NCBI GenBank assembly: GCA_965224085.1
Contig: CBDCYI010000011.1
Location: forward strand, 768,001 to 832,000
Reading direction: 5' to 3'
DNA: 64,000 nt
Source of the DNA: Candidatus Marinacidobacterales bacterium
GTDB taxonomy: Bacteria; Acidobacteriota; Vicinamibacteria; Marinacidobacterales; SMYC01
Shown here: in pieces, positions 4,172 to 55,516 of the stretch
How the letters are laid out: each line of letters begins with the position of its first letter
Position numbering within the stretch: position 1 is the stretch's first letter
The notes under the pieces: model-generated
Seen by the model: the letters and a program-made list of their open reading frames with translations, nothing else
Databases searched by the model: none
Told to the model about the DNA's origin: nothing
Program-made: the position numbers and the translations under genes

Positions 4172-4888
4172 TTACGGCGCCGTCCACGCGCTTTCGGAGT
4201 TCGGACGTGCCGACCCGTTGCGGAGCTTGTGGTAGCAGGGAGCCAAAGTTCCTGCGGGGACGCCGATCGTGTAGAGCGAGACCATCGACCAGTTCAAGAG
4301 CGTCGTTGCGAGCGGACCGAGTTTTTGCCAATGGCGCCGGCCCGTCGTGATCGGCACGTTCAGTTGCACGAGCTTGCCCATCCTTCTGAGCGCACGAACG
4401 AGGGCGACGTCTTCCATGAAAGGAAGCTCGGGATAGCCACCCACTTGGTCGAACGCACTCCTACGGAGGAACAGTCCTTGGTCCCCATAGGGGATCCCCA
4501 GATGACGGGCGCGGAAGTTCGACGTCGCAGCGATGAGCTTGAGGCCCCAGCTGGCGTCCCGAATGCGCAAGCTAAACGCTCCGCCCACGGTCTTTTTATC
4601 TTCGAGCGCTACCATTACTTTATCGCGTGTATCGGGTCCGAGGACACAGTCCGCATGGACAAATAGGAGGACGTCGCCTGCGGCAGCTTGGGCGCCGCGG
4701 TTCATCTGTGGGGCGCGGCCGCGCTCGCCCGTGACCACCCGCGCACCATGACGTTCAGCGATGGAGACGGTCTCGTCGGTGCTGCCGCCGTCGGAGACGA
4801 TGAGCTCTGCTCCTGGCGGCAAGGCTTCGAGGGTTGTGGAAAGTGTCTCCGCTTCGTTCAGAGTAGGAACGATCACAGCGAGCTCCAT
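4172..4888 (-). CDS. GT2 glycosyltransferase, TIGR04283-like (arsenosugar-associated family)
   Basis: VPTLNEA, DGGSTD, GRAxQMNxGA, LLFVHAD, YGDQGLF, PFMED motifs. Confidence 0.8.
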   Translation of the reverse strand: MELAVIVPTLNEAETLSTTLEALPPGAELIVSDGGSTDETVSIAERHGARVVTGERGRAPQMNRGAQAAAGDVLLFVHADCVLGPDTRDKVMVALEDKKTVGGAFSLRIRDASWGLKLIAATSNFRARHLGIPYGDQGLFLRRSAFDQVGGYPELPFMEDVALVRALRRMGKLVQLNVPITTGRRHWQKLGPLATTLLNWSMVSLYTIGVPAGTLAPCYHKLRNGSARPNSESAWTAP

Positions 4889-49277: not shown

Positions 49278-49889
49278 TTGTCGCGAGCAGTCTACCACGG
49301 AGGTTTTCGTGCTCGTGGTCAGAGAAAAACGGAAGTAGGTTCCGTCCATAATAGAGACAGTCCCCGTCGCCCCATTCACAAATAGAAGTAGGAGTTGCTC
49401 CTTTGAACGACGCTTCGCGTGCGTTCTGGTTCAAGCCACCCCTCGAGCCTGGCGGCAACGAGGATACGCTCTTCGTGCCGCTGGCCGCCCGGACCGCGGT
49501 AGGTATGAGCCGGAGGACGCTCTTTGTCGAGTTCTACGATTCCATCCGTCTCTGGATAGAGGAGCACCGCAAGCCCGGCCTGGCGGTGGTTGCTCTCGGC
49601 GGGCGCAGAGTGTCTGGATCGAAAACCGCTCGATGTCCGCCCGAGCTGCCCCTATCACCGGAATCGTTGCCCTTCGTTAACGGGCTCAGCGTGGCTCCTC
49701 GCACGCGAAACCGCACGACATCGTGGCCGCTGCGAGCGATACACGACCCGGCTTGTAGCCGCGTAGCAAAGCCGAGCGATTTTGGGGCCGGCGAGGGTAT
49801 GGATGTCGAGTTAGCATGACGAGGAGGTGCGAGCAGATCCTGTGAAAGGATTCACAGGCCCCGGCCGTGTGGTCTGGTAGAGTAGCGTC

Positions 49890-50657
49890 ATGCGGCGCTC
49901 GAGCTCGGCGGTCGTCCTCTTCACGCTGACGCCGGAAGCGGAAGGGGTTAGAAAACCCCTCGGGCTCCACGGGTCGCAGCGTGCCACGGCTCTTTTTGCC
50001 ACACTGATCGAGCACGTCCAGACGGTGTGCACGGGTCTGAGCGGCGCCGATCTCCTCGTTGCCAGCGAGGCGCCGGTCGATCTCCCCGCGGGAGCTCAGT
50101 GGCTCCGTCAACGAGGGAGAGACTTCGGAGAATCGCTCAGGCTTGCGGTCGAGGAGGCGTTCGCGCGCGGCTACCGGCAGGTCGTCGTCATCGGGAACGA
50201 TGCGCCGGAGATCTGTCAGGATTACGTGAAAACCGCTCTCGACGAGCTCTCCCGAGGAGAACGGAAGGCCGCCGTCGGTCCGGCGACCGACGGAGGCTAC
50301 AACCTTATCGGCCTGACGGAGCCGTGCATCGCGGCCTTCGAAGCGATGCCCTGGGGCTCGGCCGAGGTTGCGCAACTGACCGTGGAGCGGCTTCGGGAAA
50401 GCGGCTTCGAAGTGGCGCATCTTCCGAAGCTCGAAGACATCGATAGCGCTCAGGAGCTCGTGCGCTTTTTGAACCGCATCTCCAGCCATGGACCGCGGGC
50501 CCGAGTAGCTCTGAAGAGGCTCGTTTCTCGGATTCGACAACTTTCCGCACCGGAACTTTGGACCATCGAAGAGGCTCATCACTCTCACAAGCGCCTCTCA
50601 CCCGCCGCCGCCCACCGGCTGCGCGCTCCGCCCCTGCCTTCCTGCACGACGCTCTAA
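49890..50657 (+). CDS. DUF2064/TIGR04282-like transferase
   Basis: QRG.DFGE.L, VVIGND.P, GPATDGGY.LIGL, DID. Confidence 0.82.
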   Translation: MRRSSSAVVLFTLTPEAEGVRKPLGLHGSQRATALFATLIEHVQTVCTGLSGADLLVASEAPVDLPAGAQWLRQRGRDFGESLRLAVEEAFARGYRQVVVIGNDAPEICQDYVKTALDELSRGERKAAVGPATDGGYNLIGLTEPCIAAFEAMPWGSAEVAQLTVERLRESGFEVAHLPKLEDIDSAQELVRFLNRISSHGPRARVALKRLVSRIRQLSAPELWTIEEAHHSHKRLSPAAAHRLRAPPLPSCTTL

Positions 50658-50701
50658 TCCTTCTGTTCGAGATCCGCGAAAGGCGGACCGGGAGTGTATC
50701 C

Positions 50702-51913
50702 ATGGAAAGGCCCATAGACTTGCAAAGACTAGCCATCATCGGCGCTGGCCCGATCGGAATCGAGGCCGCGCTCGCCGGGCGCGAGCTCGGATACGACGTT
50801 CGCGTCTATGAGCGTGGAACCGTCGGCGGGAACCTGCGGCGCTGGGGACGCGTGCGGCTCTTCTCTTCCTTCGAGCTCAATCACTCGGGGCGGGGTGCGC
50901 GTCTTCTCCAAGCCGAAGGTTTCAAGCTTCCCGAGGCCTCCGCGTATCTCACCGGGGAGGAGCACCTCGAGCGCTATCTCGAGCCTCTGTCGCGCACAGC
51001 CCCTCTGTCGGGATGCATCCACGAGAACACGCGCGTGGTCTCGGTCGGCCGCGAAGGCATCGGGAAGGGGGACCTCATCGGCGGTCCGCGGGAGCGGTAT
51101 CCGTTCCGGCTTCTCGTCGAAAGCGAGGCCGGCGACGAGGAGCTCGCGGAGGCAGACGTCCTTTTCGACTGTTCGGGAACGTACGGAAACCACAATTGGG
51201 TGGGAAACGGGAACGTACCGGCTCTCGGAGAGCGCGCGCTCGAGGAGCACATTGCCTACGAGCTCGAAGACGTCACCGGGACGGATCGCGCGAGATACGA
51301 GGCAAAGCGTGTTCTCCTCGTCGGCGACGGTCACTCGGCGAGCACGGCGCTCGACGGTTTGAGGGCCCTCCGCGAAACGACGGTCCACTGGGTCGTGCGA
51401 AAACAGAAGCCGCCCGCCGTCATCGCCGACGATCCGCTTCCCGAGCGCAAGAGGCTCTCCGAGCTCGCAGGTGAGCTCGCAGCGGGAGGCGACGCCCGGA
51501 TCCACTTCTATCCAGAGCACACCGTCGAGTCGGTACGGCGTGGGAGCTCCGCGTTCGAAGTCGAGCTTCGCTCGTCGCGGGCAACCAAGCTCGTGAGCGT
51601 GGACCGGATCCTTGCCCACGTCGGGTACCATCCGGACCGAAGCATCTATCGAGAGCTCCAAGTCCACGAGTGCTACGCCTCGCTGGCTCCGATGAAGCTT
51701 GCCGCAGCTCTTCTCGGCGAAAGCCCGGTCGACTGCTTGGCGCAGACGTCCAAAGGCGCCGAGGTTCTCAGAAATCCGGAACCGAATTTCTTCATTCTCG
51801 GGGCCAAGAGCTACGGCAAAGGCTCGAATTTCCTGATCCGCATCGGGCTCCGGCAGATCGCGGAAGTGTTCGGACTGCTGGCCGCCGAGAGGCGGAAGGA
51901 GCGAGCCTCGTGA
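50702..51913 (+). CDS. FAD/NAD(P)-dependent oxidoreductase (flavin monooxygenase-like)
   Basis: IIGAGPIG, WGRVRLFS, DCSGT, VGDGHSA, PEPNFFILGAKSYG. Confidence 0.85.
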   Translation: MERPIDLQRLAIIGAGPIGIEAALAGRELGYDVRVYERGTVGGNLRRWGRVRLFSSFELNHSGRGARLLQAEGFKLPEASAYLTGEEHLERYLEPLSRTAPLSGCIHENTRVVSVGREGIGKGDLIGGPRERYPFRLLVESEAGDEELAEADVLFDCSGTYGNHNWVGNGNVPALGERALEEHIAYELEDVTGTDRARYEAKRVLLVGDGHSASTALDGLRALRETTVHWVVRKQKPPAVIADDPLPERKRLSELAGELAAGGDARIHFYPEHTVESVRRGSSAFEVELRSSRATKLVSVDRILAHVGYHPDRSIYRELQVHECYASLAPMKLAAALLGESPVDCLAQTSKGAEVLRNPEPNFFILGAKSYGKGSNFLIRIGLRQIAEVFGLLAAERRKERAS

Positions 51914-52800
51914 GCGCGAGCGCCCGGGTCGAGCTTCGCGCCCTCGACGATCTCTGGTTCCAAATCTCGGGAACGCTGTGCAATCTGACGTGCCACCACT
52001 GTTTCATCTCGTGTGGTCCGACGAACCATACGTTCGAGTTCCTCTCCCGTGAGGCCGTGCTCCTCGCACTCGAAGAGTCTCGGGAGCTCGGCGTCAAGGA
52101 GTATTACTTCACGGGGGGAGAGCCTTTCATACACCCGGACATGGTCGAGATTCTCGAGCGCACCCTGGAGCTCGGTCCGGCGACCGTGCTCACGAACGGG
52201 ACGTTGTTGAAACCGGAGGCCGCCGCCCGGCTGCAGCGGGCCGAGGCGCGATCGCCCTACAGCCTGGAGTTTCGGGTGAGCATCGACGGCTACTCGAGCG
52301 AGACGAACGATCCCATTCGCGGGGACGGGACGTTCGTGCGCGCGATGGCCGGTGTGCGGCTTCTTCTGCAGTACGGCTTCCTCCCGATCATCACCGTGGC
52401 GCAAACCTGGGACGACGATCGCAACGACGACGTCTTCGCGCGTTTCGTGAGCGTGCTGCGAGATGCAGGATACGAGCGCCCCCGAGTGAAGATCATTCCG
52501 ACCTTGCGGATCGGCGCCGAGGTCGAACGCAATCGCGGCTATCACCCGTCGGAGAAGGTGACCGTGGAGATGCTTGAGGACTTCGACGTCTCTCAGCTCA
52601 TCTGCACCCACTCGCGGATCGTGACCGAGAAGGGCGTCTACGTCTGCCCCATCCTCATCGACTCGCCGGAAGCCCGCATAGGAACGACCCTGTCCGAGTC
52701 GCTCGGCTCCTATCCGCTCGCGCATGGAGCCTGCTACACCTGCTATGTAGGCGGCGCCATTTGCAGCAATGTGAGCGCGGGAGGTGGCGATGCAGCCTGA
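51910..52800 (+). CDS. Radical SAM enzyme with Cys-rich C-terminus
   Basis: CNLTCHHC, FTGGEP, LTNG; C-terminal C..CP..CYTC....C; GTGA overlap. Confidence 0.9.
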   Translation: MSASARVELRALDDLWFQISGTLCNLTCHHCFISCGPTNHTFEFLSREAVLLALEESRELGVKEYYFTGGEPFIHPDMVEILERTLELGPATVLTNGTLLKPEAAARLQRAEARSPYSLEFRVSIDGYSSETNDPIRGDGTFVRAMAGVRLLLQYGFLPIITVAQTWDDDRNDDVFARFVSVLRDAGYERPRVKIIPTLRIGAEVERNRGYHPSEKVTVEMLEDFDVSQLICTHSRIVTEKGVYVCPILIDSPEARIGTTLSESLGSYPLAHGACYTCYVGGAICSNVSAGGGDAA

Positions 52801-53584
52801 GCGCTTCGAGAGAATCGCCGCTCTCGGCGGCGTCTACAGCAACCATATCGCCCTCGAGGCCGCCATTGCCGACGCCCGCCGGCGCGACGTCGACGCCATC
52901 TTCTGTCTCGGGGATCTCGGCGCCTTCGGGCCACACCCCGACAAGACGTTTCCTTTGTTGCTCGAAGCGGGCGTACGGGTGATGCAGGGGAACTACGACA
53001 ACTCCATCGGGCGAGGACTCAACGACTGCCAGTGCGGGTACACCGACGCCCGCGACAACTTCTTCGCGAAGATTTCGTACGACTACACCTTCGACCGGAC
53101 TTCGGACCGATGGAAGTCGTGGCTGCGATCCCTCCCGGAGTCGATCCGCATCGAGCTCGGCGGCTACCGGGTGCTCATGAGCCACGGCTCGCCTCGAAAG
53201 ATGAACGAGTTCCTCTGGGAGTCCACGACCCCGACGCATTTTCTCGAGAAGATGGTGGAGTCGCATCACGCCGACGTGGTGCTGGCCACGCATACCGGTC
53301 TTCACTGGAAGCGCGAGCTTCCCGGCGACCGGCACTTCGTCAACGTCGGTGTCGTAGGGCGGCCTGCCAACGATGGACGGACCAACGTCTGGTACACGAT
53401 TCTCGACGCCAGCAACGGCTTCGACGCCGAGTTCGTTCCCGTGGACTACGACCACGAGAGCCTGGCGCTTGAGATGAAGCAGGAGGGTCTCCCGGTGGAG
53501 TTCATCGATACGATCCGGCACGGATGGTGGACCACCTGCCTCGAGATTCTCCCGGCGAAAGAGCGAAAGAAAGGAAGCTTCTGA
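52790..53584 (+). CDS. Metallophosphoesterase-fold protein with a degenerate metal site and a CxC motif
   Basis: LGDL, GNYD, HGSP, NVG; DxH replaced by GVY; DCQCGY. Confidence 0.8.
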   Translation: MQPERFERIAALGGVYSNHIALEAAIADARRRDVDAIFCLGDLGAFGPHPDKTFPLLLEAGVRVMQGNYDNSIGRGLNDCQCGYTDARDNFFAKISYDYTFDRTSDRWKSWLRSLPESIRIELGGYRVLMSHGSPRKMNEFLWESTTPTHFLEKMVESHHADVVLATHTGLHWKRELPGDRHFVNVGVVGRPANDGRTNVWYTILDASNGFDAEFVPVDYDHESLALEMKQEGLPVEFIDTIRHGWWTTCLEILPAKERKKGSF

Positions 53585-54750
53585 TGGCGACAACCGAGAT
53601 GAACCCTGAACGAGCCGTGAAGTCGCGTTACTCGCAGGCGGCATCGGCGCGTGAGCGAGAGCTCTGCTGTCCCGTGGACTACGACCTGCGATACCTGTCG
53701 GTCATTCCTGAAGAGATCCTCGAGCGGGACTACGGCTGCGGGGACCCTTCGAAGCACTTGCGCTCGGGAGAAACAGTTCTGGACCTCGGAAGCGGTGGCG
53801 GCAAGATTTGCTACATCGCGTCTCAGGTGGTGGGGCCGAAAGGCCGCGTCATCGGCGTCGACATGAACGACGACATGCTCGCGCTGGCGCGCAACTACCG
53901 TCAGAGCATCGGGGACGCGCTCGGCTTTCACAACGTCGAGCTCCGCAAAGGCAAGATTCAAGACCTCGCTCTCGATCAAGAAGGGCTCGAGGCCCATCTC
54001 GCGGCTTATCCGGTACGTACCCTCGAGGAGCTCGAGGCCGTGGGCCGCTGGAAAGAGAAGGAGCGGAAGGAGAACCCGATGATTCCGTCGGCCTCAATCG
54101 ACGTCGTGGTGAGCAACTGCGTGCTCAACCTCGTCGGCCCGCAGTCGAAATCCGAGCTCTTCCGCGAGATGCATCGTGTCCTGAAGAGGGGTGGACGCGT
54201 CGTCATCTCCGACATCGTGAGCGACGAAGACGTGCCCGAGCACTTGCAGGCCGACCCCGATCTCTGGAGCGGCTGCATTTCCGGCGCGTTTCGTGAAGAC
54301 CTGTTCTTGAAGGCATTCGAGGAAGCCGGGTTCTACGGCGTCGAGATCCTCTCGCGTGACGAAAGACCTTGGCAGAGCGTCGAGGGCATCGAGTTCCGCG
54401 CGCTCACGGTCCGAGCCTTCAAGGGGAAGGAAGGCCCGTGCCTCGAGCGCGATCAAGCCGTGATCTACAAAGGGCCATGGCGGAGCGTCACCGACGATGA
54501 TGGGCACGCGCTTTTTCGAGGCCAACGCATGGCGGTCTGCGACAAGACTTTCAACATTTACAAATCCGAGCCCTACGCAGCGGACATCGAAGCCGTAGAG
54601 CCTTACGAGGAGATTCCTCTTTCAGAAGCGGCGCCGTTCGATTGCCGGAAGGACGCGGTGCGCCATGCGCGGGAGACCAAGGGGCTCGACTACGATGCCA
54701 CCGAGACAACCGACGCGCCGTACTGCGGACCCGACGGTAACTGCTGCTGA
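53584..54750 (+). CDS. arsM: ArsM-like SAM-dependent (arsenite) methyltransferase, long form
   Basis: LCCP, YGCGDP, LDLGSGGG, SNCVLNL, WSGCISGA, terminal CC; TGATG overlap. Confidence 0.75.
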   Translation: MATTEMNPERAVKSRYSQAASARERELCCPVDYDLRYLSVIPEEILERDYGCGDPSKHLRSGETVLDLGSGGGKICYIASQVVGPKGRVIGVDMNDDMLALARNYRQSIGDALGFHNVELRKGKIQDLALDQEGLEAHLAAYPVRTLEELEAVGRWKEKERKENPMIPSASIDVVVSNCVLNLVGPQSKSELFREMHRVLKRGGRVVISDIVSDEDVPEHLQADPDLWSGCISGAFREDLFLKAFEEAGFYGVEILSRDERPWQSVEGIEFRALTVRAFKGKEGPCLERDQAVIYKGPWRSVTDDDGHALFRGQRMAVCDKTFNIYKSEPYAADIEAVEPYEEIPLSEAAPFDCRKDAVRHARETKGLDYDATETTDAPYCGPDGNCC

Positions 54751-54772
54751 CGGCTGGAAAAGCCATGGAAAG

Positions 54773-55516
54773 CTAACTCTCGAGTACATCGTACCGATTC
54801 AAATCGTCGTCGCCTAGAAAACTCTCCACCCAACGAAGCGGCAGCTCGCGGCTAAGTGCCTCCGATTCCTCTTCGCTCGCCGCATGACAATAACGGTACG
54901 CGGCGGGGACGCCCCACGTCATGATGTGATCGCCAAGCTCGAACTCGCCGGGATCCAGCGTTTCCGATGACACCCCGAGGTAGTCCTCCCAGTGCACCAG
55001 CTTCTTGACAAAGCGCGGGAACTGGTCGAACCGCCAAGCCGTATACACCAACACGCCTCTGGAAGCCACACGCGCCGAAACCTCGGTGAGCAGTTTCAAA
55101 CGGCGTGCTCCCCCAGGCACGTGGTGCAGCACGCCAAACAAAACGACCAGATCGAACGTGGCCGACGCGAGCGCATCGGGCAGGAGCTCGGGCCCCGTGA
55201 TAAAGTCGTGCTTGTAAAGCTCGACGGCGTCGAGCTCCGCAAGCCGGGGACGGGCATGCTCCAGTGCAAGACCGCTCGCATCGACGCCGACATAAGTGAA
55301 CCGCATACCGCGCTGCGCCATAAAACGCGCAAAGCGACCGTTACCGCAGCCGAGATCGAGGACCCTGGGCTGAGCTTTCAGCCGAGACCCGATGCGGTCG
55401 AAGAGCACGTCCCACCCCCGCCACGCGCGCTCACGCGTTTGGTTGAACTCGTCCGCGCGCTCGGCGTAAAAACGCCGGTTGATCGCGTTGAGCTTCCGGA
55501 CCGTCTCCTCGTTCAT
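54773..55516 (-). CDS. Class I SAM-dependent methyltransferase
   Basis: VLDLGCGNGRF, GVLHH. Confidence 0.85.
   Translation of the reverse strand: MNEETVRKLNAINRRFYAERADEFNQTRERAWRGWDVLFDRIGSRLKAQPRVLDLGCGNGRFARFMAQRGMRFTYVGVDASGLALEHARPRLAELDAVELYKHDFITGPELLPDALASATFDLVVLFGVLHHVPGGARRLKLLTEVSARVASRGVLVYTAWRFDQFPRFVKKLVHWEDYLGVSSETLDPGEFELGDHIMTWGVPAAYRYCHAASEEESEALSRELPLRWVESFLGDDDLNRYDVLES

Follow-up and report, generated by a model that had tools for sequence, protein, structure and literature searches.

Described systems and the locus under study

Radical formation of carbon-arsenic (C-As) bonds is attributed to two radical S-adenosylmethionine (SAM) enzymes, ArsS and ArsL, in the surveyed literature. 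ArsS (TIGR04167) adenosylates trivalent dimethylarsenic, DMAs(III), to give DDMAA (PMC13598754; 10.64898/2026.04.29.721666), and belongs to a pathway with the methyltransferase ArsM and accessory TIGR04282, TIGR04283 and TIGR04169 proteins; ArsL is paired with ArsM in the arsinothricin system (arsQML). Further points of comparison are the arsenate reductase Car1 of Rufibacter tibetensis, whose Cys74 and Cys76 are reported to be essential (PMC12124457), the methylarsenite oxidase ArsV (10.1101/2021.08.12.456183), and CruR, a RAPP leader whose stall is relieved by copper, which triggers Rho termination (PMC9426467). Here, these systems are compared with a five-gene operon at positions 49890-54750 (+ strand) of a 64,000-nucleotide stretch of DNA from a Candidatus Marinacidobacterales bacterium (hereafter the window). 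Overall, the comparison favours, with a probability of roughly 0.58, an ArsS-independent arsenosugar-type C-As pathway under arrest-peptide control, and it is very probable that the operon is arsenic-related. Two of its features would not be expected by a specialist, namely the probable RAPP leader on gene 1 and the predicted complex of gene 3 with gene 4.

The five open reading frames (ORFs) encode, in order, a DUF2064 protein, a flavoprotein, a radical SAM enzyme, a phosphoesterase-fold protein and a methyltransferase. Genes 1 and 2 are separated by 44 nucleotides (nt), while genes 2 and 3 overlap by 4 nt (GTGA, at 51910), genes 3 and 4 by 11 nt (52790-52800), and genes 4 and 5 by 1 nt (TGATG, at 53584). 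Together with the Pfam domains found (DUF2064, Pyr_redox_3, Radical_SAM, Metallophos_2 and Methyltransf_31, respectively), this bears out the co-oriented genes, coordinates, overlaps and domain calls of an initial annotation made from the sequence alone. The closest relatives are in Candidatus Marinacidobacterales records (gene 3 at 96% identity), followed by many planctomycetes, and an identical five-gene order was found in six other loci (L005, L036, L288, L289, L290, and L301). In some close relatives (L004, L022, and L291), ArsM is matched in part or in separate pieces, and the operon is bordered by transposase-like ORFs.

A core of three genes is conserved

Around gene 3, surveyed in the best 80 of 190 loci (some of them short), the neighbours were a flavoprotein in 71 loci, a phosphoesterase in 54, a DUF2064 protein in 22, and ArsM in 4. 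Nevertheless, 41 of the genomes behind 50 of these loci hold the ArsM subfamily of gene 5 (E<1e-100), mostly in a non-adjacent position. Co-occurrence was also counted in a control sample of 251 genomes from one phylum (that of genome G027), in which gene 3 is present in 19 genomes (at >=51% identity, leaving out 14 weaker matches, 4 of them ArsM fusions), the gene 5-type ArsM subfamily in 54, and ArsS in 72. Orthologs of gene 2 (E<1e-70) and gene 4 (E<1e-100) occur in an identical set of 18 of the 251 genomes, all of which carry gene 3 (18/19 gene 3 genomes), and the three genes co-occur even though they lie apart in G027, G085, G155, G232, and G271. Therefore, the flavoprotein, radical SAM enzyme and phosphoesterase constitute one functional unit. 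This trio is the conserved core, and ArsM is usually elsewhere in the genome. The initial annotation had proposed that organoarsenicals are made here by an unusual combination of enzymes, and this is supported; the set is conserved across genomes and shares ArsM, TIGR04282, TIGR04283 and TIGR04169 with ArsS clusters, but the conserved part is the trio and not the five genes with a linked ArsM.

The distribution of gene 3 relative to ArsS suggests that one may stand in for the other where ArsM is present. Of the 54 genomes with ArsM, ArsS alone is present in 37 and gene 3 alone in 10; 2 carry both enzymes, and 5 lack both (Fisher p 6.6e-6). Similarly, ArsS-negative genomes hold ArsM in 10/17 cases with gene 3 versus 5/162 without it (Fisher p 6.7e-9). 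These p-values overstate the significance, since kin genomes are not independent. Over all 251 genomes, the exclusion of gene 3 and ArsS alone is not significant (p 0.11). The two genomes that carry both gene 3 and ArsS have two ArsM copies each, and they are the only 2 of the 72 ArsS genomes in which the gene 2 and gene 4 partners are found.

In a second survey, ArsM served as the anchor; of 320 metagenome loci the best 80 were covered, and 33 of these have a radical SAM ORF: 24 are ArsS-type by motif, 6 belong to the gene 3 subfamily, and 3 to sister clades. The six gene 3-subfamily loci show several gene orders. Additionally, relatives of gene 3 are fused to ArsM (P0017 and L215-L218, as well as P0098 and P0136 from sister clades) or to the flavoprotein (P0007 and P0014); L215-L218 represent a minimal two-domain form. 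Genes of the TIGR04169, TIGR04282 and TIGR04283 families adjoin the trio in L091, L092, and L293-L296, with TIGR04283 in L294 and L296 and with 3/5 of the TIGR04169 matches just under the cut-off. A PiT-like transporter also flanks the trio in other lineages.

The same observations bear on an alternative in which the trio reduces, cleaves and re-oxidises imported organoarsenicals, such as arsenosugars or dimethylarsinate, with the leader sensing them. The members of the trio are linked more tightly to one another than to ArsM (18/19 versus 12/19 genomes), and one plasmid (L239) has a sister-clade cluster with a phosphonate-type ABC importer and no ArsM. Many of the hosts are recorded as planctomycetes, which are degraders of algal matter. 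In contrast, the fusions to ArsM and the near-exclusion with ArsS fit a substitute for ArsS better than a reverse reaction, and salvage or breakdown is thus considered unlikely.

A ThiO-like gene lies near the trio in 27/81 loci (for instance, L021:5485-6636), and a representative passes TIGR02352. In planctomycete loci, this gene often separates TIGR04282 from the flavoprotein; it was treated as a passenger.

A radical SAM enzyme outside the ArsS family

Gene 3 (51910-52800, + strand) starts with GTG and encodes a radical SAM enzyme of 296 amino acids (aa) that belongs to an unnamed family. It has the cluster C24-x3-C28-x2-C31 and five C-terminal cysteines (C232, C246, C275, C278, and C285). 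When the gene 3 profile is aligned with ArsS using hhalign, 276 columns are matched (probability 99.4, 20% identity), and the five C-terminal cysteines fall, in this alignment, on invariant ArsS cysteines, although the C-terminal profiles of the two families do not cross-hit. The score against TIGR04167, however, is 52.7 bits relative to a cut-off of 300, and the best NCBIfam match is the Rv1681 family, also below its cut-off (98.5 < 380 bits). The structural model (predicted local distance difference test [pLDDT] 94.5) has BlsE, SkfB and anSME as its closest folds, the ESM Atlas matches are unnamed radical SAM clusters only, and none of genes 2-4 has a close relative in the PDB.

Identity with ArsS was rejected, given the score below the TIGR04167 cut-off and the replacement of the ArsS motifs GGAPE and SLPCY, and the radical SAM enzyme of the initial annotation is thus better placed in a separate family. 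Identity with ArsL was also rejected: gene 3 encodes 296 aa compared with 428 and lacks the RCCLKC tail, and no ArsL model is among the best 25 of 42 NCBIfam matches. Gene 3 is therefore ArsS-like by context and not a member of ArsS; it occupies the ArsS slot beside the same ArsM subfamily and in the company of the same accessory genes. Unlike ArsS, it has two near-constant partners (genes 2 and 4) that are foreign to ArsS. Formation of a C-As bond by gene 3 is somewhat favoured, and DDMAA itself is suggested as the product only tentatively.

A Car1-like protein predicted to bind the radical SAM enzyme

Gene 4 (52790-53584, + strand; 264 aa) encodes a metallophosphoesterase-fold protein without any NCBIfam match in the profile scan, and its best structural matches are SapH-like phosphodiesterases. 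It carries a cysteine pair, C80-x-C82, that is nearly invariant (C80 in 56/57 and C82 in 57/57 orthologs) and aligns with C74 and C76 (CGC at 74-76) of two plasmid-encoded phosphoesterases from ars operons, which stood in for the Car1 sequence in this comparison. Of 40 plasmid records with gene 4 homologs, two were inspected, and both are in arsR-arsM operons. Relative to Car1, which has the same fold and a cysteine pair at the equivalent place, gene 4 is remodelled: the first metal site is lost through replacement of the motif-I Asp by G14 (56/57), of a His by Y16 (56/57), and of the last His by G170 (57/57), while the second site is kept (D42, N68, H132, and H168). These ligand positions are presumed from the usual motifs of the fold. 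An additional cysteine, C250, is invariant among orthologs, there is an extra C-terminal arm, and gene 4 is paired with a radical SAM enzyme, not with an ArsR operon. Gene 4 thus looks, from its conserved residues, like a Car1-type As(V) reductase and not like the decorating enzyme that had initially been proposed.

Complex prediction for genes 3 and 4 gave a score of 0.91, compared with 0.02 for the best control; the mark used for this score is reached by 116/157 solved pairs and 2/215 mismatched pairs, and is roughly valid here, where separate alignments were made. At least 94% of contacts are shared between the runs, with pLDDT values of at least 93 for the partners. On gene 4, the predicted interface consists of residues 143-151 and the C-terminal arm (251-260), and this arm is absent from the two ars-operon homologs. 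Within gene 3, conservation at the interface positions exceeds that of the remaining residues in 17/17 trio enzymes. A complex of the two proteins is therefore considered likely on the basis of these models. ArsL acts on trivalent arsenic only, and a reductase as partner of gene 3 would thus be useful.

The flavoprotein and the methyltransferase

Gene 2 (50702-51913, + strand) encodes an FAD/NAD(P)H flavoprotein of 403 aa when the start is taken at ATG; the program-made ORF list begins at an upstream TTG. Among its orthologs, C345 is present in 71/72 and C324 in 68/72, and a Cys-rich C-terminal tail is absent. Four plasmid homologs (31-34% identity), chosen for spread from the top 30 of 153 records, are all in ars-type regions, three of them with named ars genes; arsR or marR precedes them, and their neighbours include MFS or GNAT genes. 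This is the operon context reported for arsV. The comparison with ArsV, made through these ars-operon homologs and not the ArsV sequence, thus shows a shared context and C345, while gene 2 differs in lacking the Cys-rich tail, in having C324, and in its coupling, in some cases by fusion, to a radical SAM enzyme. No match to ArsO (NF040505, cut-off 425 bits) was found at E 0.001.

Gene 5 (53584-54750, + strand; 388 aa) has the ArsM cysteine pattern noted in the initial annotation, consisting of CC(28-29), GCG (C52), SNC(179), GC(231) and a terminal CC. C28/C29, C52, C179 and C231 are kept in 79-81 of 81 orthologs, and their spacing, which was the only basis of comparison, equals that of cysteines 30/54/181/233 in BgArsM (PMC8552651). 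The highest model score is to NF040538, the point of closest likeness to arsinothricin ArsL-ArsM (345.9 bits relative to a cut-off of 500), followed by NF008823 (194.2/263) and NF038099 (133.5/400). Gene 5 is thus a putative ArsM-like As(III) SAM methyltransferase.

Since genes 2 and 4 have their nearest annotated relatives in ars operons, the locus could be viewed as a detoxification module built from resistance enzymes (a Car1-type reductase, ArsM and an ArsV-type oxidase), with the radical SAM enzyme as a sink for toxic trivalent methylarsenic and not as the way to a useful metabolite. Additionally, Acr3 was not found in the host genome (95% complete), and another defence may therefore be needed. 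However, no arsR, arsC or efflux families were recognised from sequence among the recurrent neighbours of the 80 gene 3 loci, for which some clusters were profile-scanned, and genes 2 and 4 are both remodelled relative to the resistance forms. The ORFs that flank the operon in the window, of which three were profile-scanned, likewise include no recognisable arsR, arsC or efflux gene, in agreement with the initial annotation. Furthermore, arsS mutants of Synechocystis are reported not to be arsenite-sensitive (10.1101/2022.09.23.509062). Pure detoxification is considered quite improbable, but more probable than an unrelated role for the trio.

In the latter case, the trio would serve another element or group, such as selenium, antimony, or a phosphinate or phosphonate, and ArsM would be a frequent passenger. 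Some observations are consistent with this: relatives of the DUF2064 protein are still labelled 'rSAM/selenodomain-associated transferase' in one source, gene 3 is matched best in NCBIfam by the Rv1681 family, a phosphonate-type transporter is present in L239, and ArsV also acts on Sb(III). Set against these are three independent pointers to arsenic (the ArsM cysteine set, the Car1 cysteine pair, and the ars-operon flavoprotein family), the repeated fusion of gene 3 relatives to ArsM, and the finding that none of genes 1-5 has an in-frame TGA. A non-arsenic function is therefore very unlikely.

A probable arrest-peptide leader

Gene 1 (49890-50657, + strand; 255 aa) comprises a DUF2064/TIGR04282-like domain (approximately residues 9-190) and a variable C-terminal extension. 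It scores 89.4 bits against PF09837 and 121.7 bits against TIGR04282, below the cut-off of 134; four homologs with the same kind of tail score 95.1-128.9 against TIGR04282. In comparison, an unlinked paralog on another contig (L305:6780-7475, G000:C9), situated behind a TPR-like gene and without a RAPP tail, exceeds the cut-off with 179.1 bits. The C-terminus of gene 1 is R245-A-P-P248 followed by seven residues; the RAPP codons (50622-50633, + strand) are thus seven residues before the stop, with a C-rich, G-poor stretch behind them. Both RAPP and RGPP cause ribosome arrest, and proteomes tend to avoid them (PMC12992588).

The motif is strongly conserved in its position. RAPP or RGPP is present within the last 25 residues in 42/46 close homologs, and the remaining four stop short of the region. 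R245, P247 and P248 are identical in 42/42 homologs that reach the motif, compared with conservation of at most 0.43 at positions 219-243. Outside this group, the motif was found in 1/8 distant homologs and in 1/2482 long ORFs of the host genome. Among the DUF2064 matches in the surveyed loci (n=53), 13 rows, some from the same genome, have RAPP or RGPP, one has RRPP, and 39, two of them cut short, have neither. Where the junction was read, tail-bearing DUF2064 genes lie directly upstream of the flavoprotein or, in L163, of ArsM. In the 45 nt after the motif, C exceeds G in 11/11 loci, several of which are close kin, and six are above the 95th background percentile. The last conserved helix of gene 1 ends near residue 218, which is approximately 27 residues ahead of RAPP. 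The ribosome exit tunnel spans roughly 27 residues, and this distance would therefore fit release of a stall by folding.

Therefore, given the sub-cut-off TIGR04282 score, the conserved RAPP tail and the presence of a true TIGR04282 protein elsewhere, gene 1 is probably a CruR-like arrest-peptide leader or sensor and not the biosynthetic transferase that was first proposed, although this reading is drawn from sequence features and the protein may have both jobs. Similar to CruR (DUF2946), ApdA and ApdP, gene 1 heads an operon, is shorter than 300 aa, and has RAPP near its C-terminus and a C-rich stretch behind it. In those proteins, the N-terminal part is a signal segment, a membrane segment or a CXXC peptide, whereas that of gene 1 is a folded, enzyme-like domain, and the genes downstream of gene 1 are arsenic enzymes. 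SecM-type unmasking of the gene 2 binding site was not supported (2/12 folds), and the C-rich stretch together with the rarity of unmasking leans weakly towards a Rho-type switch.

Alternatively, gene 1 could be just a divergent transferase, with RAPP being incidental or reflecting RNA pairing to the ribosome-binding site of the following gene. Its transferase core shows good conservation (G102-N-D, G130-P-A-x-D-G-G-Y, and D183-I-D), and in the lowest-energy fold of the window the Shine-Dalgarno region of gene 2 is base-paired to the RAPP codons. However, the proline codons of the motif vary synonymously (CCG/CCT/CCA/CCC), the motif persists in distant DUF2064 proteins that are upstream of unrelated genes, its background frequency in long ORFs is very low, and a tail-less TIGR04282 protein above the cut-off is encoded on another contig. 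A divergent transferase is thus an unlikely explanation of gene 1, and a leader is preferred.

DUF2064 proteins with RAPP have been recorded before. The source table of PMC12992588 includes at least 44 of them, of which 37/44 rows precede TonB/SusC receptors and 7/44 precede TIGR04169 genes; the main text names neither 'DUF2064' nor 'arsen', and a remark could be present in the appendix. The association with receptors also lends some support to salvage of imported organoarsenicals. Such receptors may import organoarsenicals. Relatives of gene 1 were not found on viral contigs, and on plasmids only partial matches were present (0/62 records cover 80% of gene 1).

Proposed pathway and its weighing

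In the following scheme, we infer the chemistry of all steps and the direction of regulation. Gene 4 would reduce pentavalent arsenic via C80/C82, as Car1 does; speculatively, the loss of one metal site may suit methylated As(V), such as dimethylarsinate. Docked on the radical SAM enzyme, it could hand over the trivalent product. ArsM (gene 5) would convert As(III) to MAs(III)/DMAs(III), and gene 3 would couple DMAs(III) to a radical derived from SAM, in all likelihood 5'-deoxyadenosyl, so that DDMAA or a similar As-C compound results. Further processing would fall to the unlinked TIGR04282 and TIGR04283 proteins, as their database names imply. Gene 2 would oxidise stray or product trivalent organoarsenic, protecting a genome without detected Acr3. 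Finally, gene 1 would stall its own ribosome at RAPP, and ligand binding or domain folding would lift the stall and switch the downstream genes in the manner of CruR.

Several results weigh against this scheme. Regarding the arsenic assignment as a whole, the cut-off of any named arsenic NCBIfam family is reached by 0/5 genes, and the TIGR04167, TIGR04282 and ArsM models were all matched below their cut-offs. ArsM is rarely adjacent to gene 3 (4 of the best 80 loci), and 7/19 gene 3 genomes are without the gene 5-type ArsM subfamily; each of these seven has another ArsM-like gene, but only 1/5 of those scanned passes a cut-off. Four radical SAM-ArsM fusions (L215-L218) and one further genome are without gene 2 and gene 4 orthologs. 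Regarding gene 3, the C-terminal hidden Markov models (HMMs) of its family and of ArsS do not cross-hit, with best scores of 4.0 and 1.4 bits, and the gene 3-family profile scores ArsS at a median of 55.6 versus up to 50.0 for unrelated radical SAM proteins from the same genome. In a quick tree of 43 radical SAM cores, the gene 3 family (support 96) and ArsS (100, on a long branch) are separate and have no resolved link. A sister relationship of the two families is thus not supported by the C-terminal HMMs or the tree. Furthermore, the invariant GGAPE and SLPCY of ArsS correspond to the canonical GGEP and SIDG in gene 3, and the chemistry of gene 3 may therefore differ from that of ArsS. The gene 3 interface positions are also more conserved in 3/5 enzymes without the partner, and a gene 4-type reductase beside a gene 2-type oxidase could result in a futile cycle. 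Regarding gene 1, a stall at RAPP frees the next ribosome-binding site by >=0.1 in only 2/12 folded loci, and within the motif the codons for R and A hardly vary (CGC GCT), so that its conservation may partly be at the RNA level.

Nevertheless, biosynthesis is favoured over salvage, pure detoxification and a non-arsenic role; as to biosynthesis versus salvage, we infer the former. A more far-reaching version of the scheme is a third radical C-As route, in which a reductase-radical SAM complex reduces methylated As(V) and passes the trivalent species directly to radical coupling, producing a novel organoarsenical, and in which a new class of arrest peptide switches the operon. The transferase-like leader domain would sense an arsenic or nucleotide metabolite while on the ribosome, and in other phyla the same leader would also precede operons for receptors and accessory genes of the ArsS type. 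Taken jointly, these claims are doubtful.

Other features of the window, host genome and relatives

The GC content of the operon equals that of the window. A sigma-70-type promoter was not found in 49300-55000, where terminator counts were at chance level. Metatranscriptome contigs from four sets include scattered low-depth pieces of all five genes and some flanking DNA, and were not used as evidence because such contigs show neither transcription nor a single transcript. A class I methyltransferase without a specific family (54773-55516, - strand) is convergent with the operon and was not counted in it.

A TIGR04283 glycosyltransferase (4172-4888, - strand; 235.8 bits, above the cut-off of 182) is unlinked to the operon at a distance of 45 kb and is its probable downstream partner. 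It stands alone between housekeeping-looking genes. Elsewhere in the host genome (95% complete), no ArsS above the cut-off was found; likewise, no TIGR04169 protein passed the cut-off, and one LMWPc-family gene is present. A second ArsM-like gene (L002; G000:C4:113737-114318) has an in-frame TGA, and the best model for the part upstream of the TGA is the ArsM/AhpD selenoprotein (226 < 510 bits).

Among the relatives, recurrent frames of 770-910 aa (L223, L224, L226, and L278-L286) represent a further radical SAM family tied to ArsM. The two that were read (L223 and L283) have a PqqD-like N-terminal segment, recognised by eye, a radical SAM/SPASM domain and an ArsM-like domain. The Roseomonas plasmid mentioned above (L239:4992-11952) encodes TIGR04282, DUF547, two radical SAM genes, one of which belongs to a sister clade, the phosphonate-type ABC transporter, and a phosphoesterase remodelled similarly to gene 4. 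On a Marinobacter plasmid (L240:8001-8844), an unannotated sister-clade radical SAM match in two pieces is present beside a sodium:solute symporter.

Implications

In the literature covered, which excludes most subscription journals, no characterisation of this gene combination was found, and neither the term methylarsenate reductase nor dimethylarsenate reductase was encountered. If a widespread third radical C-As family is confirmed, it adds producers that are missed by arsS-based surveys; gene 3 is present in 19/251 genomes of the one-phylum sample and, at a loose threshold, in 34/201 genomes of the window's class. Similarly, a Car1 variant that reduces methylarsenates, if true, would fill a gap. 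The leader, in turn, bears on a question raised in PMC12992588, namely what exerts the pull on RAPP arrest peptides that have no part in protein export. One possible answer is a sensor domain that is soluble and folded, and its ligand would point to the product of the pathway.

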